A DNA stretch of 64,000 bases from an uncultured bacterium (GCA_963844965.1 CAWJQC010000008.1:92185-156184); one strand, 5' to 3'; counted from the first letter of the stretch, positions 11,765 through 64,000 are shown. Program-made: numbers and translations. The notes: generated by a model not told the origin, from the letters alone.

Positions 11765-12181
11765 TTAATAAACCCAGATTCCAATAGCAAGCAGGATAAT
11801 CCGCACGAGCATAAAGGCAATTAAGTGGAGCATATAAAATATACCCTTTTCGAACATATCAATGCCCCAAATTTTGAAACAGATAAGAATGACGGCGGAG
11901 TGGACGATAAGGTAAGAGAAACTGCCAATTATCCGGTTGACAGATGGAGGAAGGCCGTTGGATTGGCGCATCCTTCCGAAAGTCATTGCGGTAAAAACGA
12001 CAGAAACCAACACGAGGAAGATACCGATTACGATCGTTGGGATGAGGGGTGAAATAAACGATTGCCACAATTGCACGAAAGGCGCATCAAGGGCGTTAAA
12101 TATCGGCTGGAGCATTTGGGTCGCCGAGGCGACAGCGCTGGAGGAATACACTGGGAAGATAACCGGCGGTGTAGATGTCAT
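11765..12181 (-). CDS. hypothetical integral membrane protein
   Basis: 138 aa, 4 hydrophobic segments. Confidence 0.45.
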   Translation of the reverse strand: MTSTPPVIFPVYSSSAVASATQMLQPIFNALDAPFVQLWQSFISPLIPTIVIGIFLVLVSVVFTAMTFGRMRQSNGLPPSVNRIIGSFSYLIVHSAVILICFKIWGIDMFEKGIFYMLHLIAFMLVRIILLAIGIWVY

Positions 12182-12246
12182 CCCAGCAACATACAGCAGT
12201 TATGGCGGGCTGGTCAATTGGTGGCCGCGGGTTATATAATATCTTT

Positions 12247-13482
12247 AATGAAAATCGAGAGCCAAAAACTCAACGTAACCGAGGCGTTTAAAAACTTCTA
12301 TTACATCGTCCCGCCGTATCAGCGGGAGTATGTTTGGAAGGAGAGAAACGTTGCCCAGTTATTTAACGATATTTACGACGAATATACCAACGATAAAAAC
12401 TCCGAATACTTTATCGGCAGTATCGTCGTAAATAAGCGTGAGGATGGCACATACGAAGTGATCGACGGCCAACAGCGATTAACCACTTTATTTATTAGTC
12501 TTTGTGCGCTTAAACGTGTGTTCAAAAATTCCCAAGATCATTTAAGCGTTATAGAAAATCTGCTCACTTCCCCGACGACGAACGATAAAGGCGAAATCAT
12601 CCGCAGCTCCCATCTTGAACTGCAATATGAAGGCACAGCAGACATTTTACGCGATATTTTGAATGACAAGGAATTAAGCAAAAAAACGTCTGGTTCGGCA
12701 GAACACATCAAAGAAGCCCTCGAAACCATCCTCGAATACCTGAACGCAAACTTCAAAACAGAAAATGACCGAACGCGGTTTTATGGATATTTTATGCACA
12801 AGGTAAATTTTGTGCAGATTGAAACGCCGAGCGTGAGCGACGCTTTGAAAATTTTTGAAACGATCAATGAGCGCGGCGTTGGCCTGAATCCGATGGATTT
12901 GCTCAAAAATTTGATATTTCAGCAATTGCCACGCGACGAGTTTCAAAAGGTTAATGTCGAATGGAAGAAAATAACGAGGACGTTGGAAAAGAATGGGCAG
13001 AAGCCACTCCGCTTTTTACGCTACTTCATAATGGCCAACTATCAGGTCAAGGATACTAAAGACGTCGAGGTTGTGCGTGAGGACGAGATTTACGACTGGG
13101 TGGTAAGACACGCCGAGGTTTGCGGCTATAGGAAAGATCCATTCGGGTTTGTGGGAAAAATCGCCACAGATGCCGAAGCCTACGTTTCATTTTTCAACGG
13201 TATGACGCTGGAGGGCAAGAATAGCGTCGAATTGGAAAACATCAGGAGCTTGGGCGGCGGTGCATTCAGCCAACATTTAGTTATGCTGCTTGCGGCCAAA
13301 GAGTTGCCCGAAGACCTTTTTCTTCATCTCGTTCGACAGGTGGAAAGCTTATCTTTTACTACTTCATTACGAAAACTCCCGCGAAAGCACTGGAAGCCCG
13401 TTTTTCCCGATGGGCGGATGATTTGCGTGATGTAGCGGGCGATGCAGATCAAAAAGCCGCCCTCAATAAATTCATAATGTAA
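12247..13482 (+). CDS. DUF262 (ParB-like nuclease / GmrSD-BrxU N-terminal domain) protein, frameshifted near 13345 and ending inside the IS3 terminal repeat
   Basis: N-terminal YYIVPPYQREYVWK…VIDGQQRLTTLF is the DUF262 signature (DGQQR). The alternate frame after ~13350 reads …LIFYYFITKTPAKALEARFSRWADDLRDVAGDADQKAALNKFIM*. No DUF1524/HNH-like C-terminal domain is present. Confidence 0.7.
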
Positions 13483-13534: not shown

Positions 13535-14317
13535 TTAAGCCGCAATCTTCTCGGCAAACACGGACGGCGGCATCTTGAGGGCGGAGTGGATCCGCGTGTG
13601 GTTGTACTGCCACAAGGTGCTGTAGATCTCCGCCACGAGCTCGCCGAAGGTCCCGAACCGGTTGGGATCACCGAGGTCAATCTTGAACTTGTCATAGAAC
13701 GATTCCTGGTAGCCGTTTTCCCATGGGGCACCGGGCCGCGACCGCGAGATCGTGATGCCACAGTCCCCCAGTGTATCGGTGAACGCTCGTGCCTTGTACT
13801 CGCTGCCGTTGTCCGAATGGAAGATGACCGGATGCGGATGGTGGAAAAGCGCGTTGGCCAGGGTCTGTATCGTGAGGGGCGATCCTTTCCGCAACGCCAC
13901 ATGGACGCCCATCAATCGTCTCGTGAAAAGATCGAGTATCGTGGACACGTACACTTTCTTGCCGCGATACAGGAACTCCGTGAAATCGGTTGCCCAGACG
14001 TGGTTCGCGTACGAGGGCATGATGGCAAGTAAGAGGTTCGGAAAGGCCCGCGATGCCTTTGATTTCCGGTATTTCCTGCCTCGCCTCCGGTACGGCCTTA
14101 TGCCGAAGATTCGCATGACGCGCTGCGCTCGCGGACGGCTCACGCCCAGAGCTTGTCCCAAGCGCCGGGAACCGTATGCCGGATGGCGCTGCAATTCTTC
14201 TTCCATGCGGATCTTGAGCGCCCAATCTTTCTTGTCCTGCCGTGATACGTAGTAGAGCGATGCCCGCGAGACGCCCATGGCCCGCGCCATGGCGGACTTG
14301 TTCCGCTTTTCCGTCAA
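13535..14317 (-). CDS. IS3-family transposase OrfB (DDE integrase core, rve domain), expressed as OrfAB fusion by -1 frameshift
   Basis: HSDNGSEYKARAF…ITISRSRPGAPWENGYQESF (DDE/rve). The -1 frame from the CCAAAAAAAG heptamer gives KELTEKRNKSAMARA, which continues OrfB. Confidence 0.8.
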   Translation of the reverse strand: MTEKRNKSAMARAMGVSRASLYYVSRQDKKDWALKIRMEEELQRHPAYGSRRLGQALGVSRPRAQRVMRIFGIRPYRRRGRKYRKSKASRAFPNLLLAIMPSYANHVWATDFTEFLYRGKKVYVSTILDLFTRRLMGVHVALRKGSPLTIQTLANALFHHPHPVIFHSDNGSEYKARAFTDTLGDCGITISRSRPGAPWENGYQESFYDKFKIDLGDPNRFGTFGELVAEIYSTLWQYNHTRIHSALKMPPSVFAEKIAA

Positions 14318-14577
14318 TTCTTTTTTTGGGCCTGGGAGAGCTTCACGGTGAGCTCGCCCACCACTTCAAACAGCTCCCTGTTCTGCTTCTGGAGACGGCT
14401 GAACTCGCCCCAGGAAGGGACGCCCGATGCTCCTGCGCCTAGCCAATTGTAGATGGTGGACTCGTGCAAACCGTGGTCCTTCGCAGCCTGCGCTACGGGG
14501 ACTCCTTCTTCCTTCACCCGGCGGAGGATGTCCGCCTTCACTTCCTTCGCAATCCGATGCCCTTTTTTGTTGCTCAT
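14314..14577 (-). CDS. IS3-family transposase OrfA (HTH)
   Basis: 87 aa, helix-turn-helix. Ends KLSQAQKKN* at the A7G slippery run (plus 14320-14328). Confidence 0.8.
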   Translation of the reverse strand: MSNKKGHRIAKEVKADILRRVKEEGVPVAQAAKDHGLHESTIYNWLGAGASGVPSWGEFSRLQKQNRELFEVVGELTVKLSQAQKKN

Positions 14578-39629: not shown

Positions 39630-42151
39630 TCATAATTTTTCCATATTCCCCCAGTCCTTCCCGCAGGAAACGTTCACCACAAGCGGCACTTTCAGGGTGT
39701 ATATTTTTTCCATTGTGCCTCCAATCAGCTCTGCAGTTTCTCTTATCTTATCATCGCGGACCTCGAACAGCAATTCATCGTGAATAGAGAGAATCAATCG
39801 CGCGCCAGCGCCCCAAATCCCGGCCTCTTCCAAAACCTTACGCGATCTAATCATTGACATTTTTATAATATCGGCGCCAAATCCTTGGATTGGAAAATTT
39901 ATCGCCGCCCGCTCCGCTTCGGAGACCAAGCGCGGCGAATCCGTGGCTGCACCGAAGAGATAGCGCCTCCGGCCGGTCGGCGTCCGCGCGAAACCGGAAG
40001 TTCTAACTTCACTTTTTATTTTCTCCTGCCAAACTTTTATCTGCGAAAATGCCTTAAAATACGCAGTGATGAATTCGCGTGCTTTTTCTGTTGTGAGGCC
40101 GCTCGTCCTTGCGAAAGACGGCGCCCCCATGCCATAGATCAGCCCGAAATTAAGTGTCTTCGCGAGACGCCGCTCAGCTGGACCGACCTTTTCAAGCGGA
40201 ATTCCAAAGACGCGCGAAGCGGTGACTTTATGGATATCCAGTCCCCTCTCAAAAGCTTTTATCATCTGCGAATCACCGGTAAGCGAGGCGAGGATGCGAA
40301 GTTCAATTTGGGAATAGTCAAAAGCGAGAAACGAAGAATCCCTTCGGCGCCTCAAAGGCCGCCCGCAGTTCCTTGGTCCAGATCGATTCCTGGGGAATGT
40401 TCTGCAAATTCGGCGTCTGCGAACTCAATCTGCCAGTAGCCGTTCCCGTCTGCACGAATTCCGTGTGAAGCCGTTTACCGGCTGAGAGTTCCAAAAGCGG
40501 GCGCGCGTATGTGGATAAAATCTTGAAATTCTCGCGATAATCCAAGAATCAAACCGACTATCTCGTGCGCCCCGCGCAATTCTTCCAAATTAGCCGCGCG
40601 CGTTGTGCGCATCCCGGTCTTCGTCCTCCGGACGCCATCACCGAGCCCCAGCTTGTCAAAGATAATCTCGCCGACTTTCTTGGGCGAATTGATGTTAAAT
40701 TCTTCTCCGGCAGCCGCGTAAATTTCTTTCGCGAGGCCGTCTAATTTTTTCGTGATTTTTTCTTCAAGCGTCGTGAGTTTCTCCAGCGAAATCAAAATGC
40801 CGTGGCTTTCCATTTCCGCCAAAATTCGCAGAAGCGGCATTTCAATTTCCTCAAAGACTTTAGCAAGGCCATACTCATTGATTTTTCTCGCGGCAAAATC
40901 ATACGCGTACTTCAAGTCGGCAATGTCACCTCTCCACTCTTTGTTAAAAAATTTCTTGAATACCGCCGGCGGCGCGTATTGCTTGAAATCCGGGTCAATC
41001 ATCCAGAAAGCGACGCCTAGGTCAAAGTACGGCGCGCTTAAATCTTTGCCTTGCCTCCATAGATTTTTGAGCGTTTTTTTCAGATCAAAACCGACTTTGG
41101 GTTTTGAAGAAAGATAAGCCGCAGAATATGCCTCGCCGTCTCTTATAAAAATAACTTCTTGTTTTTCGGCATTTTGCGCGACGGCTGAGCCGACTTCCGG
41201 CATGGGAAAAATCCGGCCCTGCTCGCCCCGTTTGCGGCGGACCATTGGGGCTGGCGTTTCCTTTCCCGGCTCGGGGACGTGCACCTCCATTCCACCCTCC
41301 AATCTCTTGAGTAGTGTCTCAAAACCGAGTTTTCGGAAATATGTTTTTATCGGGGAATAATTTTCTTCAATTTTCAGTTCATCAATGTTTTTTACCTCAA
41401 GCGGCACCCCCCGGTTGAGAATCACGAGGCTTCTCGCCAGTTCCGCTTCCTTCCTAAATTGACCCAATTTTTTCTCCAGCTTCGAATCGGCTGCCAAATT
41501 TTTATACGCGTTTTCAAGCGTCCCGAAGCGCTGAAGTAGTTCGGCGGCGGTCTTCGGACCGATCCCAGGAACGCCTTTTATGTTGTCGGATGTGTCGCCA
41601 ACGAGCGCTTTGTAATCAATAAGTTGCGGCGGCCGAAGGCCATAGCGTTCGCGCACGGCCTCTTCATCGTAGAGCATCGTCTCGCTCACGCCTTTTTTGA
41701 AGGTCCTCACCAAAATTTTTCCGTTCTCCACGAGCTGGAGAGTGTCCAGGTCACCGGTAAGTATTATAACTTTAATATCTTTTTCCTTGCTGAATTTCAC
41801 GGCGAGCGTCGCGATCAAATCGTCGGCTTCGTAGCCGGGAATTTCAAAAGTTTTTATGCCGAAGACGGAAAAAGATACGTGAGCATCGGCAAGCTGCGGC
41901 ACGAGATTGTCCGGCGTCGCCGGCCGCTGTGCTTTATACTCGGCATATTCTTTCTCGCGGAATGTCTGCTCCGGCCTGTCAAAAAGCGCCGCGACGTAGT
42001 CCGGTTTATCCTCGCGCCAAAGCTTAAGCAAGATGCTCGCTAAGCCGTAAATCGCATTTATCGGCCTACCGTCCAGGGTCGTGAGCGGCGGCAAAGCATG
42101 AAAGGAACGATGAATTATGGAGTTAGCGTCTATTAAAAGAAGGGTTTCCAC
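39630..42151 (-). CDS. polA: DNA polymerase I, split into three ORFs by two frameshifts (about 40475-40545 and about 40318-40355)
   Basis: 40475..42151 is the 5'-3' exonuclease domain (…GYEADDLIATLA…) plus the N-terminal part of the polymerase. 40318..40545 and 39630..40355 carry motif A (DYSQIELR), motif B (RRLAKTLNFGLIYG) and motif C (ILSIHDELLFEV). Confidence 0.85.
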
Positions 42152-45670: not shown

Positions 45671-47363
45671 TTAATCTGTCTGCTGTTTCCACTCTATCCT
45701 GCCGGTAACCGACTCCACTTCGTCAAAACTCGTTAAACCCTGAAGGACCTTCAGAATTCCGTCGGCTTGCATGCTCACCATTTCCTGGGAGTCCGCGAAT
45801 TTTTTCAGGGCCACCTCCGATGCCTCTTTCAGTATCACTTCTTCCAAGGCAATGCCTCCCTCCAAAAATTCGTACACTCCCACGCGGCCGCGGTAGCCGA
45901 GGCCGCTGCATTTCGCGCAACCGACTGGTTCGTAAACATTTATTTTCTCATATGCGGCCTGGTTCACCCGTTTCGGTAAATTATCCAAAAATTTTTGTAT
46001 CTTGGCTCGGAAGCCACCGTCCAACGCTTTCGCCTTCTTGCATTCGGCACAAAGGCGCCGCACGAGACGCTGGGCGATAATCAAATTGAGCGCCGGCCCG
46101 ATACTCACGGCTTTCACGCCCAAATTTATCAGGCGTGGGACGGCACCGACGGCATCATTCGTGTGAAGCGTTGAGAGGACCAGGTGGCCGGTAAGCGAGG
46201 CTTGAAGCGCAATATCCGCAGTATCCAAATCCCTGATCTCACCTACGAGAATTATGTCCGGGTCCTGACGCACGACCGCCCGCAACCCCTTCGCGAACGT
46301 ATAGCCGGCCTCGGAATCAACCTGCGTCTGTTCTATGCCCGGAATCCTGTACTCTATTGGATCTTCAAGGGTTATTATTTTTATTTCGGGGCTGTTAACC
46401 CTCTTCAAAAACGCGTAAAGGGTGGTGGTTTTCCCGGAGCCGGTGGGACCAGTGTTTAAAATAAGGCCGTTGGGCTTTTCTATTTGGCGATTTACAATAA
46501 CGAGGATCGTCTTCCCTTATGCCCAGCCCGCCGAGGTCAATCGCGATAACATCCGGGTCCAGGATCCGCAGGACAATGGTCTCGCCGAATTCCGCCGGTA
46601 TAACCGAGGCGCGAATTTCTATTTCCTTTTGCCCGAAACCTATCGTGAACCGACCGTCCTGTGACTCGCCTTTTATATTTATCTTCATTCCGGAGAGAAG
46701 CTTGAGGCGCGAAACCAAGGACTCGTAATTCTTAAGCGGCAACTCCTCGAAAATATCGTGCAACAAGCCGTCAACTCTGTAGCGCATGCGCGCGTTTTTC
46801 TCCCCGGCCTCAAAATGTATGTCGGACGCCTTAAGACCCATGGCGCCGGCCAGGACAACCTCGATAAGAGTGACCGGGGTCGTCTTTGTAAAATCCAATT
46901 TTCCTATTTCGCTTTTTACCGCGGAGAAATTAACGAGTATCGCGGAGAGTTCTTCAAGCCGCTTTTTTTCGATTTTCACCTTGCCGGTAATCTCTTCCGC
47001 CTCCGGTTTGACAAATTTATAAAAGCGCCAGGCGTCGCCGAGTCCCGAAAGTGACGTGACGAACGTTTTTACCTCGTATTTTTTATTTTCCAGGTCTTTG
47101 ATAATTTTTTGCACCGCGGGCGCGCGGGGATCGGCGGCGGCTAAAGCCACTCTCCTGACCTTGACCTCAATCGTTGCGACCCTCGCGCCGCGCGCCACAT
47201 CTTCCAGAACAAGTTTTAACGCGTCCGTGGAAACGGGGGTCTTGGATAAATCCACATAAGGAAACCCTGCGTCACTAGCCAAACGTTGCGCCGCCCGCTC
47301 CTCGCCTTCGCGGTGGAGAACGGTAAGTTTACTTTGCAGAACGGATGGCTTTTGAGGATCCAT
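45671..47363 (-). CDS. GspE/PilB-family secretion ATPase (type II/IV pilus assembly), split by one frameshift near 46500
   Basis: N-terminal GspII_E_N-like domain (…DAGFPYVDL…). The alternate frame supplies NTGPTGSGKTTTLYAFLKRVNSPE (Walker A). The C-part has the tetracysteine motif CAECKK…CAKC. Start ATG (plus cat 47361-47363) is inside MITE-like copy 2. Confidence 0.8.
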
Positions 47364-47483
47364 CCCGTTAGAAATAGGACGCGGATAAAGCCACCGCGCC
47401 ATTTTTAATTTTTTGTAGTGCTCTGACCATTTACAATGATTCTTCTATTTTGCAACGCATCCGCAATTTCTAACGGGATCCAT
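47359..47483 (-). mobile_element. MITE-like element copy 2 (TIR ATCCCGTTAGAAAT; perfect 5-bp direct repeat TCCAT/ATGGA) at the gspE/pilB start codon
   Basis: On the minus strand: ATGGA-TCCCGTTAGAAAT…ATTTCTAACGGG-ATGGA. Confidence 0.65.
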
Positions 47484-53266: not shown

Positions 53267-54380
53267 TCAACTGTTCGCTATGGGTTTCAGAATATAAAGA
53301 TACGAATTATCGTTGGGTGATTTTATAAGAGCTGGTTCGCTGTCGCTTGTGATCCCCAAAAATACTTCTTCCGCTTTCAGGATTTTAATAACGTCGGCCA
53401 AATATCTCCAGTTAAAAATAGTTTTATTTGGTTTTCCTTGAATTTTCGCCGGCAACAGATATTTATTCTCACCAATAACCTGGTCAGACGATTCAACCTC
53501 TAGGACTTTTTTATTTTCCTGGATATTAAGGGTTGTCTCGCTGCTCCTTGTCCCAAAAATGCCGGCTAACTTCAGAGCTTCGGTAAATTCCTGTTTATTG
53601 ATTATGATTTCCGCGCCGAACTTTCTGGGTATTATCGCATTATAATCGGGGAAGTTTCCTTCGATCAGGCGCGAAAGGAATTCTAATTGCTCGGTTTTAA
53701 ATAATATTTGATTACTATCGTGGTAAATCCTGACGATATTCATTATTATTCAGGATTCTTATAAGTTCTTGAGTTGTTTTTAAAGGAATAAGAACTCTGA
53801 AATTTTCCTTGGAATTAGCGGTAAATTCTGAAGAGTTTATTGTCTTCTCAGCTAATCTAAAGCTGTCGGTTGCGGCTAATTTAATATTATTCACCGAAAA
53901 TTCAAACAAAACACTATTTAACTCCGGTCTCAAATCGGAGAATTGAGAGGCGACAAGTACTTGATTAAGTGCTTCTCTGAATATTTCTGTTTTTATTTCT
54001 ATATATTCTTCGTTATTTTTTATCTTCGGAGTTATAGGAAAATCATCAGCCGCAAGACCGTGGACCGAAGCGTTATAATTATCGGTTTTTATTTCCAATT
54101 TATTTCCCCTTTTTTCTATATTTAATCTTTCGCTTTGAATATTATTTATCAGATTATAAATCACACTTATCGGCACGGTGAACTTTCCGTTTTCAATAAT
54201 TTTGCCTGATATATTACAACTTATTGCAATTTCTAAATTAGTAGTTGTTAGTCTTATTTTATTATTCTCAACCTCAAAGAGAACGTTTTTTAATATCGGC
54301 AAATTCAGATTGTCTCCGGCTCCTCGTTCGGTCACCGCAAGGCCGTCCTTTAGGTTTGTTTTAATAACTATAAATTTCAT
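53267..54380 (-). CDS. dnaN: DNA polymerase III beta sliding clamp, split by a frameshift near 53715-53745
   Basis: N-terminal MKFIVIKTNLKDGLAVTERGAG… is typical of DnaN. The C-part is in ORF 53267..53743. Confidence 0.8.
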
Positions 54381-56718: not shown

Positions 56719-57450
56719 ATGCTTTCCCTTTACAATACAATATTATATCGGCCCCTCTTGAACATCCTTATTTTTTTCTACAACACGATCGCGTTCAAGG
56801 ATTTGGGATTATCCATAATATTTTTGACGGTTCTCATTCGTCTGATACTTTTCCCGATCTTTCACAAAAGCGCGCGGCATCAAACCGTAATGCAGCGGTT
56901 GCAGCCGGAACTCAAGAAAATCCAAGAGCTGCACAAGGGCAATCGCGAGAAACAGACCGAAGCGATGATGAATCTCTATAAACAATATAACGTGAACCCA
57001 TTTTCCGGTTTTTTGTTGCTCTTGGTCCAGATACCGATTCTCATAGCTCTTTATCAGATAATTTTAAAAAGTTTGAGGCCGGGTTTTTCGTCCGGACTTT
57101 ATAGTTTTGTGAGCGCGCCGGTCTCCATCAATTCTAATTTTTTGGGCTTGATAAATTTGGCCGGGAGGAGTATTGTTGTAGTGGCGTTGGCGGCTTTAGC
57201 CCAGTATTTTCAAGGAAAATTGAGCCTCCCGCAGAACACCGGGAACGCGGCGTCGGATCCCGCACAAAGAATAAGCCGCCAGATGGTTTTTGTGGCGCCA
57301 GTTGTGACCCTTATAATTTTCTACAACCTGCCGGCCGCCATCGGGCTTTATTGGCTGGTCGCCTCTTTGTTCTCGGTTTTTCAGCAGCTTGTAGTCAATC
57401 GCCAAAAAGAAAATGGAAAATTTGGAAACGTTGGTAAAAAAAATAATTGA
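56719..57450 (+). CDS. yidC: YidC/Oxa1-family membrane protein insertase (short form)
   Basis: 243 aa, 5 TM; conserved position after rnpA. Confidence 0.8.
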   Translation: MLSLYNTILYRPLLNILIFFYNTIAFKDLGLSIIFLTVLIRLILFPIFHKSARHQTVMQRLQPELKKIQELHKGNREKQTEAMMNLYKQYNVNPFSGFLLLLVQIPILIALYQIILKSLRPGFSSGLYSFVSAPVSINSNFLGLINLAGRSIVVVALAALAQYFQGKLSLPQNTGNAASDPAQRISRQMVFVAPVVTLIIFYNLPAAIGLYWLVASLFSVFQQLVVNRQKENGKFGNVGKKNN

Positions 57451-57859
57451 ACTAATGGGCTTTTCCGATTTTAAGGTTGACCTAAAATCCGATCAGAGGC
57501 GCGGTTCGGTTTTTATATACGACAGCCCGACTTTGGTGAAGGAGAATTTGCCGGTGCTGGTGGAGAGCGTGAACCACATTCTGCAAATGGTTACGAAAAA
57601 AAGGTCCGAGCCGCCGGTTTTTTTTGATATCAATGGTTATCGGCAGGAGCGCGAAAATCTGATAGCGGAATTGGCGCGCGCCGCGGCGAAGAAGGTTTTG
57701 CAGACCAAGACGCGCGTTTCTCTTCCGGCGATGAATTCATATGAAAGGCGGATCGTCCACATGGAATTAGCCATCCATCCCGAAGTTACCACCGAAAGTT
57801 TCGGAGCGGGGAAGGAGCGGTATGTGATAGTCAAGCCCGTGGAGGAGAAGGTTGGTTAG
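57413..57859 (+). CDS. jag: Jag/KhpB RNA-binding protein (KH + R3H domains)
   Basis: R3H motif …YERRIVHMEL…; position after yidC. Confidence 0.75.
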   Translation: MENLETLVKKIIELMGFSDFKVDLKSDQRRGSVFIYDSPTLVKENLPVLVESVNHILQMVTKKRSEPPVFFDINGYRQERENLIAELARAAAKKVLQTKTRVSLPAMNSYERRIVHMELAIHPEVTTESFGAGKERYVIVKPVEEKVG

Positions 57860-57887: not shown

Positions 57888-57925
57888 AAAACAGCTTTTC
57901 GCGCGAAAAGCTGTTTTATGTTATT
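57888..57925. terminator. bidirectional Rho-independent terminator
   Basis: AAAACAGCTTTTCgcgcGAAAAGCTGTTTTATGTTATTT. Confidence 0.75.
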
Positions 57926-57943: not shown

Positions 57944-59194
57944 CTATTTCAGCGATATCCAGTATAATTTCTGGTCGTAACGATTAATGAACAAAAGATA
58001 ACCGTTGAATATTTTTAAATCCGTCGCGTCTAGATTCTGCGAGACATCGGCGAATACTTGCGTTATGTTCCCATCGTTGAGATTGATTTTATAGAAATCG
58101 TCTACGGTGAAAAGCTTGTTTTTATAATAATCGTCTGGTAATGTACTCGCGCGAAACTCATCAGCATCTCTCGGCAGAGCGCAGTACATAAACGGTGTTT
58201 GTGCTACGTTCGTGGTCGAGCTCGTTATTTTTGTCGTTGTCGCTTGTCCTCCAACCACCTGGAAAGTGCATTTCGATGGCAGGGTGAGAACAGTGAAATC
58301 GTTAAGCATTTTTCCGGAAGTATCCAGGAAGCTCAGTTTTCCTCCGTGCTCGCTTATGTCGGCAGTAAAGATTACGCCGAGATTCGCCGCTCCGCTCCAG
58401 GCCGAGTCCAGTCCGGGTTCATCGCTCACGATAGCCGCCATCGTTTTCTTCTTTACGTCAAGTGCCCATATCGATCCCGCGTAGTACGCGCTTGGCTTAT
58501 CCGATATGATTATTTCTCCAGGAGCTATCCAGTTAAGTTTTACGTCCTCAATGTGTAATTTAATCAGGTCGTTCGCCTTTGCTTTTGGGTTGGACACGTC
58601 AAAAGTCGTGATAGCGCTGACGCCGCCGCTCTCGTTGAAGATGTAGGCGATTTGGTAGCTTGACGGTGACCACACTACCGATTTCGCGCCGGCGGAAAGC
58701 GGCTGCCAAAATTTACCGGCGACATCAAAAATACTTTCCTGCGGGGTAGAGGCGTTTCCGAACGCGGTGATGATTTTATTTCCGTCGTAAGAAAAGTCGG
58801 CGCTGATAAGGTTTGCTATGGCGGACGAATTCAAAACCGACTGACTCCCGTTCATGACTTTGACGACTTGGCCGTCCGGCTGGACGATGACGGCGTTATT
58901 CTGGTTGTCTATGAAATAGTTAAGTACCTGGTTTTGGGCGACGAGGCCGAATTTCTGCCGCTGGACATTCGCGCCGGTCGCGCCGACGCCGGCATTTGTT
59001 CCGACTCCGGATGGAGACGGCGTTTGGGCGCCGGACGGATTTGACTGTGTCTGCGTCTGAGGAAGTCCGGCATTTTGGGCCTCATTGGTTGTTTCCGGTG
59101 TAGCAACCTCCGAACGGTAACGCAGGAAATAGAAAACTCCCACGACAACCAATACTGTGACGATTATTCCTAAAATATAATATGAACGTTTCAT
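57944..59194 (-). CDS. membrane-anchored beta-rich surface protein (hypothetical; T4SS-locus associated)
   Basis: N-terminal TM helix, Ser/Thr/Gln-rich linker, ~300-aa beta-strand-rich domain. Confidence 0.4.
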   Translation of the reverse strand: MKRSYYILGIIVTVLVVVGVFYFLRYRSEVATPETTNEAQNAGLPQTQTQSNPSGAQTPSPSGVGTNAGVGATGANVQRQKFGLVAQNQVLNYFIDNQNNAVIVQPDGQVVKVMNGSQSVLNSSAIANLISADFSYDGNKIITAFGNASTPQESIFDVAGKFWQPLSAGAKSVVWSPSSYQIAYIFNESGGVSAITTFDVSNPKAKANDLIKLHIEDVKLNWIAPGEIIISDKPSAYYAGSIWALDVKKKTMAAIVSDEPGLDSAWSGAANLGVIFTADISEHGGKLSFLDTSGKMLNDFTVLTLPSKCTFQVVGGQATTTKITSSTTNVAQTPFMYCALPRDADEFRASTLPDDYYKNKLFTVDDFYKINLNDGNITQVFADVSQNLDATDLKIFNGYLLFINRYDQKLYWISLK

Positions 59195-59206
59195 GGATTT
59201 ATATTT

Positions 59207-59935
59207 TTATTGGCAATTTGTAGTTGTAAAGTTATTGCATGGTCCAGCACAAGATAATCCTGGACAATCTTTTCCAGATACACACATAGGAGTTCCCGAT
59301 CCCGGGTCGCAACTGGACGACAAAACAGTGCCGCTTCCACTGGAATTAGTGCAGCTTGGTTGGTTGTAATTTGAACATGGTCCAGCACAAGATAATCCTG
59401 GACAATCTTTTCCAGATACACACATAGGAGTTCCCGATCCCGGGTCGCAACTGGATGATTGGGCGTTACTGCTTTGCTGGCATGTGCCGCTGATGCATGA
59501 TTGCCCCGAAGGGCAGCTACCAGTTGGGTTAGTGCTACTGCAACCGCTCGTCGTCGCCGTCGTCGACACCGAAACACCGGAAAGCAGAAAATTCCAACTC
59601 GTCAGATTAGGATTGATGATATTTAAAATCGTATAAGCGCCGACAAGAAGCAGGAGTCCGATTAAGGCGCCCTTCACCCACTCTTTTCCTTCTGTTTGGC
59701 CAGTGGGGTTTCCGGCTGCCAGCGTGTACTTTATTCCGCCGTAGACGATAGCCCCGAACGCCAGAATGCCGGCAAGCATCATGGCAAATTTATAAAGATA
59801 GTCAACAAAGTTCCCCAAGCCGGAGCTGCCAGAAGGTTGCCCTGGCAGATTTGTGTAGATAGTGACCGCGAGAGCGGCAAGGTTGGGGCAAAACAAGAGC
59901 AGACCGCTTAGATAATATAAAAGCTTCTTGGACAT
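59207..59935 (-). CDS. VirB2/TrbC-like pilin candidate with C-terminal Cys-rich tandem repeat
   Basis: Signal peptide plus two hydrophobic helices (pilin-like topology). Then SSCDPGSGTPMCVSGKDCPGLSCAGPC is repeated twice; this is an exact 80-bp DNA direct repeat at 59238-59317 and 59376-59455. Confidence 0.45.
   Translation of the reverse strand: MSKKLLYYLSGLLLFCPNLAALAVTIYTNLPGQPSGSSGLGNFVDYLYKFAMMLAGILAFGAIVYGGIKYTLAAGNPTGQTEGKEWVKGALIGLLLLVGAYTILNIINPNLTSWNFLLSGVSVSTTATTSGCSSTNPTGSCPSGQSCISGTCQQSSNAQSSSCDPGSGTPMCVSGKDCPGLSCAGPCSNYNQPSCTNSSGSGTVLSSSCDPGSGTPMCVSGKDCPGLSCAGPCNNFTTTNCQ
59238..59317. repeat. 80-bp perfect direct repeat, copy 1 (period 138 bp, in-frame)
   Basis: Identical to 59376-59455. 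Confidence 0.9.
59376..59455. repeat. 80-bp perfect direct repeat, copy 2
   Basis: Identical to 59238-59317. Confidence 0.9.
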
Positions 59936-60627
59936 TATTTGACTAAGGTTAGGGTTTTCATATCGGAAGCCGCCTCCGTGGAATTCTTCGTGTTCGTTAT
60001 CGTGAGCCCTATGTTTACGGCGGAACCGGCTGGCGCGTCGGTGTTCAACGTTACCGTGAGGTCTGCCGGATTTTCCTTATTGGATGCCGTTTCGCCATTG
60101 ACCGACCAAGTGAAATCAAGGGTGGACGGATTAAGCGCGGTGAAGAAGTATGGCGTGCCTATGACGTGAATTGCGTTGGTTAGAAATTTTTCGCCAGGGT
60201 ATGGCGCTTCCACGACCGCTTCGGGGTAGACGATAGGCAGCTGTATAGCCCTGGACGATTCGCCTATTTGGACTCTTATCTCCGGCGGCGTCACAATGAC
60301 GGGGTCCATGAATAAACTTGCCCCCTGCACTCCGGTGCCGCCGCTAAACAACTCGTCGTTCACATACCAGTATATGTCTTGTTTGGACAAGTCAGCAGGA
60401 ACGCCATTTTCAAGAACATCTACGGAGAAGTTAATGATAGAGTTCATGGTCGGGAGAGCTTTGCCAACGTATCGGGGCGGCGTGTATGTTGCAGCCCTCC
60501 ACGTAAGCAAGATCTGCTGATCCGCGGTTTGGGCTTGGCTTTTGTGTGCAAGGAATATCGCGAAAAAAGCAGCGAATAACAATCCGGCAGCTGATAACCT
60601 GATAACAGATTTGGGGTGCTTTACCAT
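59935..60627 (-). CDS. secreted hypothetical protein (signal peptide)
   Basis: 230 aa; N-terminal MVKHPKSVIRLSAAGLLFAAFFAIFLAHKSQA. Confidence 0.45.
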   Translation of the reverse strand: MVKHPKSVIRLSAAGLLFAAFFAIFLAHKSQAQTADQQILLTWRAATYTPPRYVGKALPTMNSIINFSVDVLENGVPADLSKQDIYWYVNDELFSGGTGVQGASLFMDPVIVTPPEIRVQIGESSRAIQLPIVYPEAVVEAPYPGEKFLTNAIHVIGTPYFFTALNPSTLDFTWSVNGETASNKENPADLTVTLNTDAPAGSAVNIGLTITNTKNSTEAASDMKTLTLVK

Positions 60628-60636
60628 TATTGTTTA

Positions 60637-61596
60637 TTATAACATTTCTTTGTTTTCCCCTCCCTCGGTCTTTTTCTTTTGCTCTTTGTCGCGCTTGTGC
60701 GCTTCCTCTATATCTTTCTTCAGTTTTAACCCCCCTAGCCACTCTCCGGCTTCTTTTTTCACTTGCTGGCGATGTTTTTCTTCCCACGTGAGGTGCGGCA
60801 CTTCTTCCTCGCCTTCTTTTGTCGGTTTTTCTTCCTCTGGTGGGACCTCTCCCTTCAAACCTAACTCTTGTGGAAGTTTTTCTAGTGGTGTCGGTTCTTC
60901 CCCTATCGCTTCTTTTTCTTCCGGCGTGGTTGCGGCCCTCTCCGGAGCCCCTCCTTCCTCTTTCGGCGCGCCTTCTTCCGGCGCGGCTCCTGCTTCTTCG
61001 GCCGGCAAGCCGACCTCTTCCGGCGCGACCCCGACTTTTTGAGCTTGCTCCTCGGCCGATGGCCCGACTTCGGTCGGAGCGCCTTCAATCGCGGGCACTT
61101 CTTCCACTCCGACAGCTCCGGGCGCGCCGGCCGCCGCACCGGCTTTCATTTCGCCTTCGGCCGCCCCCACGCCAGCTTTTGCTTCGCCCTCGACCGCCTT
61201 GGCGCCGCCCGCCGCTCCTCCTACTCCGCCTGCGCCGGTAGCCACGGCTGCTACCGATACGACAGCCTGCAGCTTGGGATGATTTTCTGTATACACGACA
61301 ATAATGAACGTAGCCGTTCTAATTGGAAGATCTCCTATCCATGGGATTAGTTTTATCAGGTTGCCTATCAGTAAATAATTGCCCTTAACCCCCTTGAGGT
61401 ACATATAAATTTGAGTTGCCGGAAATGCGACAATGCTCGTGACATCGCTCGTGGGAAAAGCGAAAAGCAAGCCAAGGATATCTATCGTGTCAACGAGGGC
61501 GATAAACGAACCGACAAGCAGCGCCTCCGGCAGGGGGAATTTAGATTGATGCTCCTGTTCAGACTGGGGTGTTTGTGTTTGAGTTTCTTCGTCCAT
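60637..61596 (-). CDS. membrane protein with N-terminal TM helices and a long Ala/Gly/Glu/Pro-rich low-complexity tail (possible VirB3/VirB6-like T4SS component)
   Basis: 319 aa; hydrophobic N-terminal third, then AGE-rich repeats. Confidence 0.4.
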   Translation of the reverse strand: MDEETQTQTPQSEQEHQSKFPLPEALLVGSFIALVDTIDILGLLFAFPTSDVTSIVAFPATQIYMYLKGVKGNYLLIGNLIKLIPWIGDLPIRTATFIIVVYTENHPKLQAVVSVAAVATGAGGVGGAAGGAKAVEGEAKAGVGAAEGEMKAGAAAGAPGAVGVEEVPAIEGAPTEVGPSAEEQAQKVGVAPEEVGLPAEEAGAAPEEGAPKEEGGAPERAATTPEEKEAIGEEPTPLEKLPQELGLKGEVPPEEEKPTKEGEEEVPHLTWEEKHRQQVKKEAGEWLGGLKLKKDIEEAHKRDKEQKKKTEGGENKEML

Positions 61597-61642
61597 CTTG
61601 ATTCATATAAAACAAACAGTATAGAATGTTTTATTTTGATTT

Positions 61643-63379
61643 TTACACCAGCCCTTTCTCTTCCTCCAATAATTGTTCCGGATTTGTCGTGATGATCTGG
61701 TCTTCGTAATAGGAAGCGACCGTTTGGATCGCCACATGCCGCTTGCCGGCGAAGAAAAGTCCTGTGCCGACATCCGCTCCCAAGAGCAGATTTTTTTCCG
61801 CTTCAGTGAGCCCGAACGCTTTGCCCACTATATCTATTGTCGCCGGCGCCTGTTTAAGAAGAAGCTGGAGCGAGGAATTTGTGATGATCGGCCGGCCGTA
61901 TGGCGAGCGCAGGAAGTCCTCAACGTCTTGTGTGATCGTGGAAACGCCGAGGTAATATTTCCTGGCGCGCTTCACGAGGCCGAAGAGAAATGTCGCGCTG
62001 TCCTGGTTTTTCATCATCCACCATGCCTCGTCTATTATAAGAAGCCGTTTCTTGAGTTCCGCCCGGATCATGTTCCAGATGAAATTCAATATCACGTACA
62101 TCGCTATTGGCCGTAGTTCGTCCTCAAGATCGCGGATAGAGAAAACAATCAGACGGTTCGTGATATCAATGTTCGTTGGCTGGTTGAGAAAGCCGGCAAA
62201 GCTGCCTTTAGTGAATTTGTAAAGTCGGTCGGCCATTTCCCGTCCGCCCTCCAAGTCGCGCAGTACCGTTTCCAGATCCTCAAGAACAGGAGGTTCCGCG
62301 CGGGAGAAATCCTGCCCGGCCACGATTTCGCGCGAGGCATATGTTTCCGTGATCGCGCGGTCCAGGAGCGCGTCTTCTTCGGCCGAGATGTTTCCGAGCA
62401 TGAGTTTTAGGAGTCCCGCCACGTTTACGATGTGCGATTTGAGAACGTCGGATGGCGATTCGTCTTTGGGTATCAGGGGTATATCAAAGGGGTTTATGTG
62501 CTCGTGTGAGGATAGTGAGATATTGAATACGCTGCCTCCGAAGGTGTTGGCAAGCCGCCTGTATTCGTTTTCCGGGTCAATTATTATGGCCGTTTCCACG
62601 CCGGCCATGAGCGAGCGGATTACCTCAAGTTTCGTCGCGTACGACTTTCCGGAGCCGGATTTCGCGAAGACTACCTGGTTGGCGTTTTCCAGCGAGAATC
62701 TGTCGAAAATAACCAGACTGTTGTTGTGGAGATTCACGCCGTACATGATTCCCTGGTTTGACGAGAGGTCTTCGGAAACGAACGGGAAGAACGATGAAAT
62801 CGGTCCAGAGTTCATCGGAGTTCTGACGCCTATTTTGTCGTCATTGAGCGGCAATACGGAGAAGAGCCCTTCTAGTTGTTCAAAAAGCGCCGGCTTCATG
62901 TAAATCAACTTGGCCTCCATCAGTGAAACGATCTTGGCTTCAAGATGCGAAATTTCTTCAAGCGTGTCTCCGTAGATGGTGAGGTAGACGCCGGTACTGA
63001 ATAATTTTTCCGTGGACTGCTGGAGAGTGTCGCGCAGCGTTTCCACGTCCTGGAGCGCCGTTTCCAGGAGTGGATCGCGGACGAGCCCCTTCTCCTGCTG
63101 GTCCATTATCTGCGATTCTATTTGCGCCGCCTTTTTTCTGAGGTTCTTTAGTGCGGTGCCGGTGTCCACGGGATTTACGAAAATGGAAATGTCAAAAAGG
63201 TTTGGCAGGTCAATCAGCGGCTCGAACCAGCCGGTTGAGAGGTACCTTGGATAAGAGAACACGAAGAATGTCTTCGCGAATTTGCCACCGATTTTCAAGT
63301 GGCTCTGCTCCACCTCCACGCCGGACGGCGCGATTATTTTTGTGATATCACCTAATTTATTGTCGTTATCTTCGGGCAT
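61643..63379 (-). CDS. VirB4/TrbE/CagE-family type IV secretion ATPase
   Basis: Walker A VVFAKSGSGKSYAT and Walker B LLIIDEAWWMM. Length and motif spacing fit the VirB4 C-terminal ATPase domain. Confidence 0.8.
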   Translation of the reverse strand: MPEDNDNKLGDITKIIAPSGVEVEQSHLKIGGKFAKTFFVFSYPRYLSTGWFEPLIDLPNLFDISIFVNPVDTGTALKNLRKKAAQIESQIMDQQEKGLVRDPLLETALQDVETLRDTLQQSTEKLFSTGVYLTIYGDTLEEISHLEAKIVSLMEAKLIYMKPALFEQLEGLFSVLPLNDDKIGVRTPMNSGPISSFFPFVSEDLSSNQGIMYGVNLHNNSLVIFDRFSLENANQVVFAKSGSGKSYATKLEVIRSLMAGVETAIIIDPENEYRRLANTFGGSVFNISLSSHEHINPFDIPLIPKDESPSDVLKSHIVNVAGLLKLMLGNISAEEDALLDRAITETYASREIVAGQDFSRAEPPVLEDLETVLRDLEGGREMADRLYKFTKGSFAGFLNQPTNIDITNRLIVFSIRDLEDELRPIAMYVILNFIWNMIRAELKKRLLIIDEAWWMMKNQDSATFLFGLVKRARKYYLGVSTITQDVEDFLRSPYGRPIITNSSLQLLLKQAPATIDIVGKAFGLTEAEKNLLLGADVGTGLFFAGKRHVAIQTVASYYEDQIITTNPEQLLEEEKGLV

Positions 63380-63441
63380 TGTTATGTTGAGTTTTGTCGT
63401 CGGCGCCCTGTGGCTTTGACCGTGGTGCGACTTTTATGTTT

Positions 63442-64000
63442 TCAATTTTGTTGGGGTATATTTATGTTCTCTCGTTCTATGGACTCCGGATTGTAAAAAT
63501 TATAGAAAAGTTCAACAAGCTGTTCGCCGTTTAGAACGGCCGCCTCTAGTCCCATCGAAAGGATCCCTTCCACAACCTGGTTTACGCGTTGTTTCAGCTG
63601 GGACACGTTTTCGTTGAAGTGCGCTTCCGCTTCTTTTTCGGCTTTTTCCTTGGCCTCCTTGTTCTTTTTCAAAAACGGGAGGTACTTGCTGAATGTGCTC
63701 GTGGAGCCTACCGAGGGAATGGATATCGGGAAAAACGGCACCACAGTGAGGAAGGTTTTCTCCATGATCGGGTTTTTTGCAACGAATCCACGGACAAATT
63801 CGCGGTATTCTTCCGCCTGATTGCGGAGCAGAGACGTTTCCTCCCGCTCCTGGTACACCTTGAGACCGTCAAGATATTTTTCTATATTTATTTTCCGTGA
63901 GTGGATTATGATCTGCAGCGAGAAATCTATGCCGTTCAGGAAATTTTGGTAGGCCTGCGTTATGAGATTTTGTTCCGCCTCCGATTTTAAGGAGAAATTC
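63442..64000 (-). CDS. hypothetical protein, 5' end beyond window (T4SS-locus associated)
   Basis: The frame stays open from 63858 up to 64000 on the minus strand; the track GTG 'start' is internal. Confidence 0.4.
   Translation of the reverse strand, partial: NFSLKSEAEQNLITQAYQNFLNGIDFSLQIIIHSRKINIEKYLDGLKVYQEREETSLLRNQAEEYREFVRGFVAKNPIMEKTFLTVVPFFPISIPSVGSTSTFSKYLPFLKKNKEAKEKAEKEAEAHFNENVSQLKQRVNQVVEGILSMGLEAAVLNGEQLVELFYNFYNPESIERENINIPQQN

Follow-up and report, generated by a model that had tools for sequence, protein, structure and literature searches.

What kind of machine is encoded by the six consecutive genes that lie beside the replication-origin genes at one end of a 64,000-nt stretch of DNA from an uncultured bacterium (GCA_963844965.1, CAWJQC010000008.1:92185-156184)? 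The whole stretch is referred to here as the window, all positions are window coordinates, and the locus spans 57944 to the window edge. An earlier note, made from the same DNA, had proposed a locus resembling a type IV secretion system (T4SS), and this stood: a VirB4 and a VirB2-like pilin both score above curated family thresholds, and dnaA, dnaN, rnpA, yidC and jag are adjacent. Very probably, the six genes make up the downstream half of the T4SS that most of the ultra-small Patescibacteria (the candidate phyla radiation, CPR) carry on the chromosome beside the replication origin. The locus is therefore of an already known kind, the Patescibacteria-clade T4SS described in 2023–2025. The open reading frames (ORFs) of the locus, and the palindrome that bounds it, are as follows.

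57944–59194, minus strand: 416-aa ORF, predicted membrane-anchored beta-propeller; adjoins jag
59207–59935, minus strand: 242-aa ORF, VirB2-like pilin-domain protein
59935–60627, minus strand: 230-aa ORF, predicted secreted protein with a two-fold internal repeat
60637–61596, minus strand: 319-aa ORF, predicted small polytopic membrane protein with a tail rich in E, A, G, K and P
61643–63379, minus strand: 578-aa ORF, predicted VirB4 ATPase, middle and C-terminal domains
63442 to beyond 64000, minus strand: 5'-open ORF, 185 codons in the window, predicted VirB4 N-terminal domain (TrsD-like), 3' part
57888–57917, no strand: palindrome resembling a bidirectional intrinsic terminator, 15 + 15 nt, 100% complementary

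The gaps between the six minus-strand ORFs (12, −1, 9, 46 and 62 nt) fit a single operon. On the plus strand, jag (57413–57859) converges on the gene for the 416-aa protein, and the two are separated by the perfect palindrome AAAACAGCTTTTCGC/GCGAAAAGCTGTTTT, which is flanked by A and T runs. The six consecutive minus-strand genes following a jag terminator, described in the earlier note, were thus recovered, as were the contents of its gene list; the genomic order given there was not, since the gene beside jag is that of the 416-aa protein and not virB4.

The evidence for a T4SS begins with the 578-aa protein, which matches NCBIfam conju_CD1110 (NF045971), a family of VirB4-like conjugal transfer ATPases, at 381.5 bits (cut-off 325, E 8e-114, profile positions 188–734 of 752). 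The next-best NCBIfam matches are the VirB4 of Mycoplasma integrated conjugative elements (ICEs), F-type TraC and the general VirB4/CagE model, and there is also a match to Pfam P-loop_TraG (E 3e-26). The best solved structure is VirB4 of Thermoanaerobacter (PDB 4AG5, E 5e-40), followed by TrwK of R388 (E 1e-4). The Walker motifs that had been noticed earlier are AKSGSGKS (Walker A, residues 239–246, positions 62642–62665) and LLIIDE (Walker B, residues 446–451, positions 62027–62044). On these similarities the protein is classed as a VirB4 family ATPase of the MPF_FATA / CD1110 type.

The conju_CD1110 match begins only at profile position 188, so that the N-terminal domain of VirB4 is missing from the 578-aa ORF. 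This domain (~200 aa) is not contiguous with the ATPase but lies in a separate ORF, in a different frame, with a TGA stop at 63442–63444 and a 62-nt gap. When aligned to the fused 768–800-aa VirB4 of relatives, the translation of the 5'-open ORF covers residues ~40–220 (E down to 6e-52) and the 578-aa protein residues ~204–790. Similarly, the 5'-open ORF has a weak match to VirB4_plasma positions 234–286, and the next ORF matches positions 290–893. About 39 codons at the 5' end of the gene fall beyond 64000, and complete orthologues, found in the two closest long loci (L004 and L002), match NCBIfam TrsD/TraD (E 8e-10 and 1e-7, both below the cut-off) as well as positions ~1–120 of VirB4 profiles. 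The open-ended ORF, previously listed as a further component of the locus, is on this alignment evidence a separately encoded VirB4 N-terminal domain, and TrsD-like.

To place the locus among its relatives, species-representative genomes were scanned with VirB4, giving at least 586 loci, of which the best 80 were used for ORF calling and clustering. These show 52–79% identity in VirB4, and come from Patescibacteria/CPR assemblies or from metagenome bins that are unclassified or differently labelled, which is consistent with the Patescibacteria clade. The VirB4 gene is split at the same point, into ORFs of ~220 and ~580 aa, in 60 of these 80 loci, with pairs occurring in all three relative frames, and it is a single fused ORF of 768–800 aa in seven near relatives (L010, L012, L013 and L023–L026). 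Since both forms occur among relatives, at least one splitting or re-fusion of the gene must have taken place within the group. The two-piece VirB4 is no defect; a TrsD arrangement such as this is usual in the Patescibacteria clade. A frameshift or sequencing error was considered and rejected, because the split is conserved in 60 related loci and in all three relative frames. UGA recoding across the split was likewise rejected, because a second in-frame stop follows the TGA and the ATPase starts in another frame.

Gene order around virB4 is also shared. The recurrent arrangement runs from KsgA through an exported protein of ~260 aa (c18), a second exported protein of 490–870 aa (c14, with a PKD domain in one case), a membrane protein (c3), a soluble protein (c4), PrgI, the N- and C-terminal pieces of VirB4, the small membrane protein, the secreted protein, the pilin and the propeller, after which come the convergent jag, yidC and rnpA, and then dnaA and dnaN. 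Counts in the 80 loci are 67 for PrgI, 55 for the pilin, 52 for c3 and ~35 for jag/dnaA. PrgI, the VirB3 equivalent, passes its Pfam threshold in the relatives tested (E 2e-9 to 5e-9). The c3 protein has 6–7 predicted transmembrane (TM) segments and a large C-terminal part; it matches the CD3337/EF1877 mobilome membrane protein family in four of 14 members (best E 3e-6), and has a weak TrbL_4 match. In a profile search of solved structures, c4 had no match at all and the c3 family nothing significant. Recurring conserved neighbours among the scanned proteins of relatives include a UvrD-type helicase, a ComM-like Mg-chelatase and KsgA.

By comparison with these relatives, the DNA beyond 64000 would be expected to carry genes for PrgI/VirB3 and the soluble protein, for a VirB6-like channel protein of extended length and for one or two surface proteins that are exported, with ksgA ahead of them all. 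The earlier expectation that remaining components lie beyond the window edge is borne out to the extent that close relatives carry PrgI/VirB3, a VirB6-like protein and exported proteins directly upstream of the VirB4 pieces. The whole operon may then comprise ~10–11 genes, which does not agree with its description as a minimal machine. Exact look-up of the window VirB4 and pilin returned no record, and that of the 416-aa protein returned one 2.5-kb Logan contig, which covers the jag side only.

A rival reading is that the locus is an ICE, or the decayed remnant of one, that moves DNA between cells. The ATPase is closest to those of Firmicutes and Mycoplasma ICEs (conju_CD1110, VirB4_plasma), and PrgI and the CD3337/EF1877-like membrane protein of relatives are ICE-type parts. 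However, ~35 genomes with VirB4 identities of 53–79% share the gene order as well as both flanks, ksgA at one end and jag-yidC-rnpA-dnaA-dnaN at the other, which indicates vertical inheritance, and the GC content of the locus (49–52%) equals that of its flanks and of the rest of the window. Among the scanned neighbour proteins of relatives there was no integrase, nor, within 10 kb, any relaxase or coupling protein (VirD4). No relaxase or coupling protein, moreover, was seen among the six locus genes or the ten other window ORFs covered by a non-exhaustive scan, in line with the earlier note. In the survey of Quinonero-Coronel et al. 2025 (PMC12102498), relaxases occurred in only 103 of 3,035 genomes, rarely near virB4, and coupling proteins were rarely linked. 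An ICE is accordingly a very improbable explanation.

That survey provides the framework for the reading preferred here, a chromosomal patescibacterial T4SS. It described a monophyletic Patescibacteria VirB4 clade nested in MPF_FATA, with 2,425 VirB4 proteins, the clade being present in 2,407 of 3,035 assemblies. TrsD, VirB3, VirB6 and pilins of the family PF18895 were found near virB4, and the Paceibacteria locus lay beside dnaA, dnaN, rnpA, ksgA and rpmH (PMC12102498). The patescibacterial T4SS is derived from the conjugation machinery of single-membrane bacteria, of MPF_FATA type. Wang et al. 2023 (PMC10633639) showed by transposon sequencing (Tn-seq) that the corresponding cluster of Southlakia epibionticum is essential for epibiotic growth; their supplementary tables give the order PrgI, a 293-aa protein and VirB4, plus TrbL/VirB6-like and PF18895 genes. 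According to a 2025 review (PMC12857230), the patescibacterial T4SS is unique among those of single-membrane bacteria in its essentiality and its pilin genes.

In the window, the neighbours on the jag side of the locus are jag, yidC, rnpA, dnaA and dnaN, and the cumulative GC-skew minimum falls at ~54–56 kb, an interval of 36.5% GC. Given these nearby genes, the skew minimum and the low GC, the locus adjoins the replication origin. With the origin at ~56 kb, the T4SS operon, encoded on the minus strand, lies to the right of the GC-skew minimum, so it is transcribed toward the origin, head-on to the replication fork, and this orientation is kept in syntenic relatives. The genes on the two sides, jag, yidC and rnpA on one and dnaA and dnaN on the other, run in the direction of replication.

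The second line of evidence is the 242-aa protein, encoded three genes downstream of virB4, which matches Pfam T4SS_pilin (PF18895) at 37.6 bits (gathering cut-off 26.6, E 2.4e-9) and has a sub-threshold match to the Mycoplasma ICE pilin-like family NF045849 (E 1.3e-4). Hydrophobic segments occupy residues 5–30, 46–69 and 86–109. An AlphaFold model, built on 53 sequences, has a leader helix (residues 2–23) and two hairpin helices (40–72 and 77–107), with a predicted local distance difference test (pLDDT) score above 90 over residues ~50–100; confidence then drops along the tail, to a pLDDT below 50 from residue 158. Comparison with relatives suggests that the leader is cut off behind ALA (residue 24), ahead of the conserved motif x-I-x-Y-x-x-(I/L)-P-G, which would leave a mature protein of ~218 aa. 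Its tail (residues 110–242, 133 aa) contains 16 Cys after residue 130, arranged in three C-x8-C-x5/6-C-x4-C units, and corresponds to the Cys-rich C-terminus of the pilin-topology protein in the earlier note. The second and third units fall within a duplicated 28-aa module (59375–59458 and 59237–59320), which is encoded by an 83-nt repeat, 99% identical, with 138-nt spacing. A type IV pilus or competence pilus locus was rejected as an alternative, the pilin being VirB2-type and the ATPase VirB4.

Is this protein really the subunit of a filament? Among 112 homologues the conserved region is the hairpin only, and most have tails of 100–270 aa, often with 8–29 Cys. A homologue search with the Cys-rich tail alone gave nothing at E<=0.001, and the pattern C-x8-C-x5/6-C-x4-C was found in six of the 112 homologues, against ~2 expected by shuffling. 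The tail thus appears, from these comparisons, to be clade-specific and hypervariable. Some relatives that group with the window pilin carry other cargo (L035:537-2642, L041:14279-20620, L048:5371-10800, L037:108-3479, and proteins P0077 and P0103), consisting of SLT_3 lysozyme-like domains, an M23 peptidase with SLT_3, or tails of 1,100–2,100 aa with 50–66 cysteines; PF18895 was confirmed in P0077 and P0103 and was just below the cut-off in L041, the other three being grouped by BLAST clustering only.

A possible but doubtful explanation is that the protein is no filament subunit: in this clade the two-helix domain would anchor variable extracellular domains in the membrane or carry them during export, with the T4SS a channel only. 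It would agree with the conjugation systems of single-membrane bacteria normally being without a pilus (PMC12102498). Long tails on most homologues, fusion of the domain to enzymatic or very long extensions, and conservation of the hairpin alone all lend it support. Still, the C-terminus faces outward in VirB2-type pili (the F and T pilus structures), which would allow a filament to display a tail of 130 aa. In Saccharibacteria, PF18895 occurs as short pilins (~127–139 aa) in essential arrays (PMC12102498, PMC10633639), and tubular structures have been seen at the patescibacterial host interface (2026 preprint), both of which favour a pilin.

Three accessory proteins complete the visible half of the operon. 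The 319-aa protein has a conserved N-terminal core of ~125 aa (about residues 15–140) with several hydrophobic segments and, in an alignment of relatives, the motifs D-[LI]-[LI]-D and E-x-IP-x3-LP-x2-T. Its tail (residues 151–319, ~170 aa) is 24% E, 13% A, 12% G, 12% K and 10% P, in keeping with the TM protein with an Ala/Gly/Glu/Pro-rich tail recognised before, and such a tail is common to the window, L001 and L006 only. The family has no Pfam or NCBIfam match. An exhaustive search gave 279 representatives at E<=1e-3, and profile-profile comparison related the family to the small membrane proteins whose genes come after virB4 in two other clades (95.7% and 95.6% probability). Judged from these profiles, a small polytopic membrane protein is conservatively placed after virB4 across clades.

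The other two are the signal-peptide or TM-anchored proteins of the earlier note, and each has the N-terminus that this implies. The 230-aa protein, whose gene is at the same position in 28 of the 80 loci, begins with a hydrophobic segment (residues 6–29) followed by SQA/Q, a signal-peptide-like N-terminus, and contains a two-fold internal repeat of ~90 aa with W/P/F-rich motifs that are conserved in an alignment of relatives. A related locus has a weak match to the immunoglobulin (Ig)-like BiPBP_C domain, and comparison with solved structures gave Ig constant domains only, at non-significant E; the repeats are probably beta-sandwich domains. The 416-aa protein, with its gene at the same position in 37 of the 80 loci, has 40 homologues, all unnamed. 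Its AlphaFold model (mean pLDDT 87.9, predicted template modelling score, pTM, 0.80) consists of one TM helix (residues 2–28), a disordered P/Q/T/S linker (30–80) and a propeller (82–416), for which Foldseek returns WD40, TolB and prolyl-oligopeptidase propellers at E ~1e-8, a generic fold. On the model, it is a membrane-anchored extracytoplasmic beta-propeller.

What, then, would such a machine do? From established T4SS biology, VirB3, VirB4 and VirB6 would form the membrane translocon, and VirB4 could extract the pilin from the membrane and polymerise it into a short tube or pilus. The Cys-rich tails would then sit on the outside of the tube or at the mouth of the channel, as the VirB2 topology, with both termini outward, would have it, and the two beta-rich proteins, one secreted and one anchored, could serve to span the wall or to make contact with the host. 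By analogy, the machine most likely mediates host-cell contact and macromolecule exchange, and not conjugation, since no relaxase or coupling protein is attached and the orthologue in Saccharibacteria is indispensable to epibiotic growth. Apart from the patescibacterial T4SS, none is known on which the bacterium that carries it depends for growth.

Exchange could also be directed inwards, through an importer, comparable to the archaeal Ced system or to ComB of Helicobacter, that brings in DNA, RNA or nucleotides, whether of the host or of the environment. This is unlikely, even if the lack of a relaxase or coupling protein would fit it, as would the weak, partial similarity of VirB4 to CedB (E 7e-11 over ~75 residues). 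Patescibacteria are without nucleotide synthesis, and a 2026 preprint, which describes tubes that extend to the host envelope at patescibacterial contact and may be T4SS pili, proposes that host RNA is taken up through them. Against an importer, the CedB match is limited to the shared P-loop region and reaches 41 bits against a 700-bit cut-off. Moreover, competence in Southlakia needs type IV pili and ComEC (PMC12857230), and ComEC is dispensable where the T4SS is essential, so that the essentiality of the T4SS is not explained by ComEC-dependent natural transformation.

Several points weigh against the picture of a pilus-forming patescibacterial T4SS engaged in host contact. For the pilin, no match to PF04956 (classical TrbC/VirB2) was reported at E<=0.1. 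The fold check proposed earlier gave a confident helical hairpin that is compatible with a pilin, but it cannot discriminate: every Foldseek match to the PDB had E>1, among assorted helical hairpins, the fold itself being too simple for that (an archaeal conjugation pilin, 8dfu, ranked 11th at a non-significant E of 4), and a profile search of solved structures with the pilin family gave transmembrane-helix similarity to HtrII only. Tails of 1,100–2,100 aa, or peptidoglycan hydrolases, on the same domain are hard to reconcile with every subunit being in a helical filament. As for the rest of the machine, the upstream half is deduced from relatives with VirB4 identity of 79% or less, the assignment of c3 as VirB6-like is weak, and no VirB8-like or VirB1-like gene was recognised in the operon of this clade. 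Finally, the function of the Paceibacteria T4SS would be carried over from Saccharibacteria.

The combination of one pilin gene with variable cargo invites speculation. In Paceibacteria, the VirB2-like domain might serve as a modular carrier, with host recognition and wall penetration built into the pilin tail and not into short-pilin arrays of the Saccharibacteria type, and together with four unannotated parts this would define a distinct architectural subtype of T4SS; the suggestion is a tentative one. Each operon would have one pilin gene, whose product exposes a disulfide-rich, rapidly evolving tail at the mouth of the channel or on the filament; in relatives the place of this tail is taken by a lysozyme, an M23 peptidase or a very large surface domain. 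The conserved parts that lack annotation are the small membrane protein after virB4, the soluble protein before PrgI, the secreted protein with the two-fold repeat and the anchored beta-propeller. The unnamed accessory proteins and the pilin cargo are targets for complex structure prediction and genetics.

Elsewhere in the window, three housekeeping genes are interrupted. The dnaN gene (53267–54380, minus) consists of two overlapping ORFs (53715–54380, 221 aa, and 53267–53743, 158 aa) where all relatives have a single gene of 362–389 aa, so that there is either a frameshift near 53715–53745 or an assembly indel. A PilB/GspE-type secretion ATPase (45671–47402, minus) is divided into a first ORF with MshEN and T2SSE profile positions 10–133 and a second with T2SSE 165–369, the Walker A motif GSGKTTT being in the second frame, upstream of the first start codon of the second ORF; its presence contradicts the earlier statement that no other pilus-biogenesis gene is visible in the window. 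DNA polymerase I (39630–42151, minus) is apparently split into a 558-aa N-terminal ORF (40475–42151) and a 241-aa ORF (39630–40355) with DYSQIELR. Three such cases in 64 kb suggest assembly indel errors or gene decay. A GmrSD-type restriction endonuclease (12062–13435, plus) adjoins an IS3-like element, made up of an rve integrase (13535–14317, minus) and a small overlapping upstream ORF (14314–14577, minus).

Comparison with known systems places the locus more exactly. The pilin resembles the VirB2/TrbC/TraA pilins of double-membrane bacteria in its putative cleavable leader, its two hydrophobic helices with a short conserved loop, and a gene beside virB4. It differs in having no PF04956 match at E<=0.1 and in a mature length of ~218 aa, against ~70, which comes from the 133-aa tail with 16 Cys; filament assembly is putative here. 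With the conjugative MPF_FATA systems (pCF10 Prg, pGO1 Trs and CTn2 CD1110), it shares an ATPase above the CD1110 cut-off, a TrsD-like protein as in pGO1, a PrgI-type VirB3 (in relatives of the window) and the lack of an outer-membrane core. Unlike them, it lacks a relaxase, a PrgB-type adhesin and, at the locus, a coupling protein, but does have a VirB2-like pilin, which they lack, and it is chromosomal and vertically inherited whereas they reside on mobile elements.

Closer still is the Southlakia epibionticum cluster SEML1_0006–0019 (PMC10633639), with PrgI, the 293-aa protein and a VirB4-type ATPase in that order, and TrbL/VirB6-like and PF18895 genes. That cluster differs from the window in its array of six short pilins, its NTF2-like (VirB8-like) protein, and the peptidase and lysozyme genes behind virB4. 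The window instead has a single pilin gene, whose product ends in a Cys-rich tail, together with the small polytopic membrane protein, the secreted two-fold-repeat protein and the beta-propeller. With the Patescibacteria-clade T4SS as surveyed in PMC12102498, the core of the window locus shows no differences. Shared features are a VirB4 of MPF_FATA affinity, a TrsD-like gene directly upstream, a PF18895 pilin near virB4, PrgI/VirB3 and a VirB6-like gene further upstream (here in syntenic relatives), no relaxase or coupling protein nearby, and a position beside dnaA, dnaN, rnpA and ksgA. The survey does not discuss long Cys-rich, enzymatic or giant C-terminal tails on pilins, and, in the single genome of its Table S3 considered here, the gene between VirB4 and VirB2 is unannotated. 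The variable C-terminal cargo of the pilin domain and the conserved unannotated accessory genes are thus modest new points, leads and not a new kind of system, and the locus is best seen as a clean Paceibacteria example of a known T4SS, with a two-piece VirB4, conserved unnamed accessory proteins and a pilin domain that carries variable cargo.

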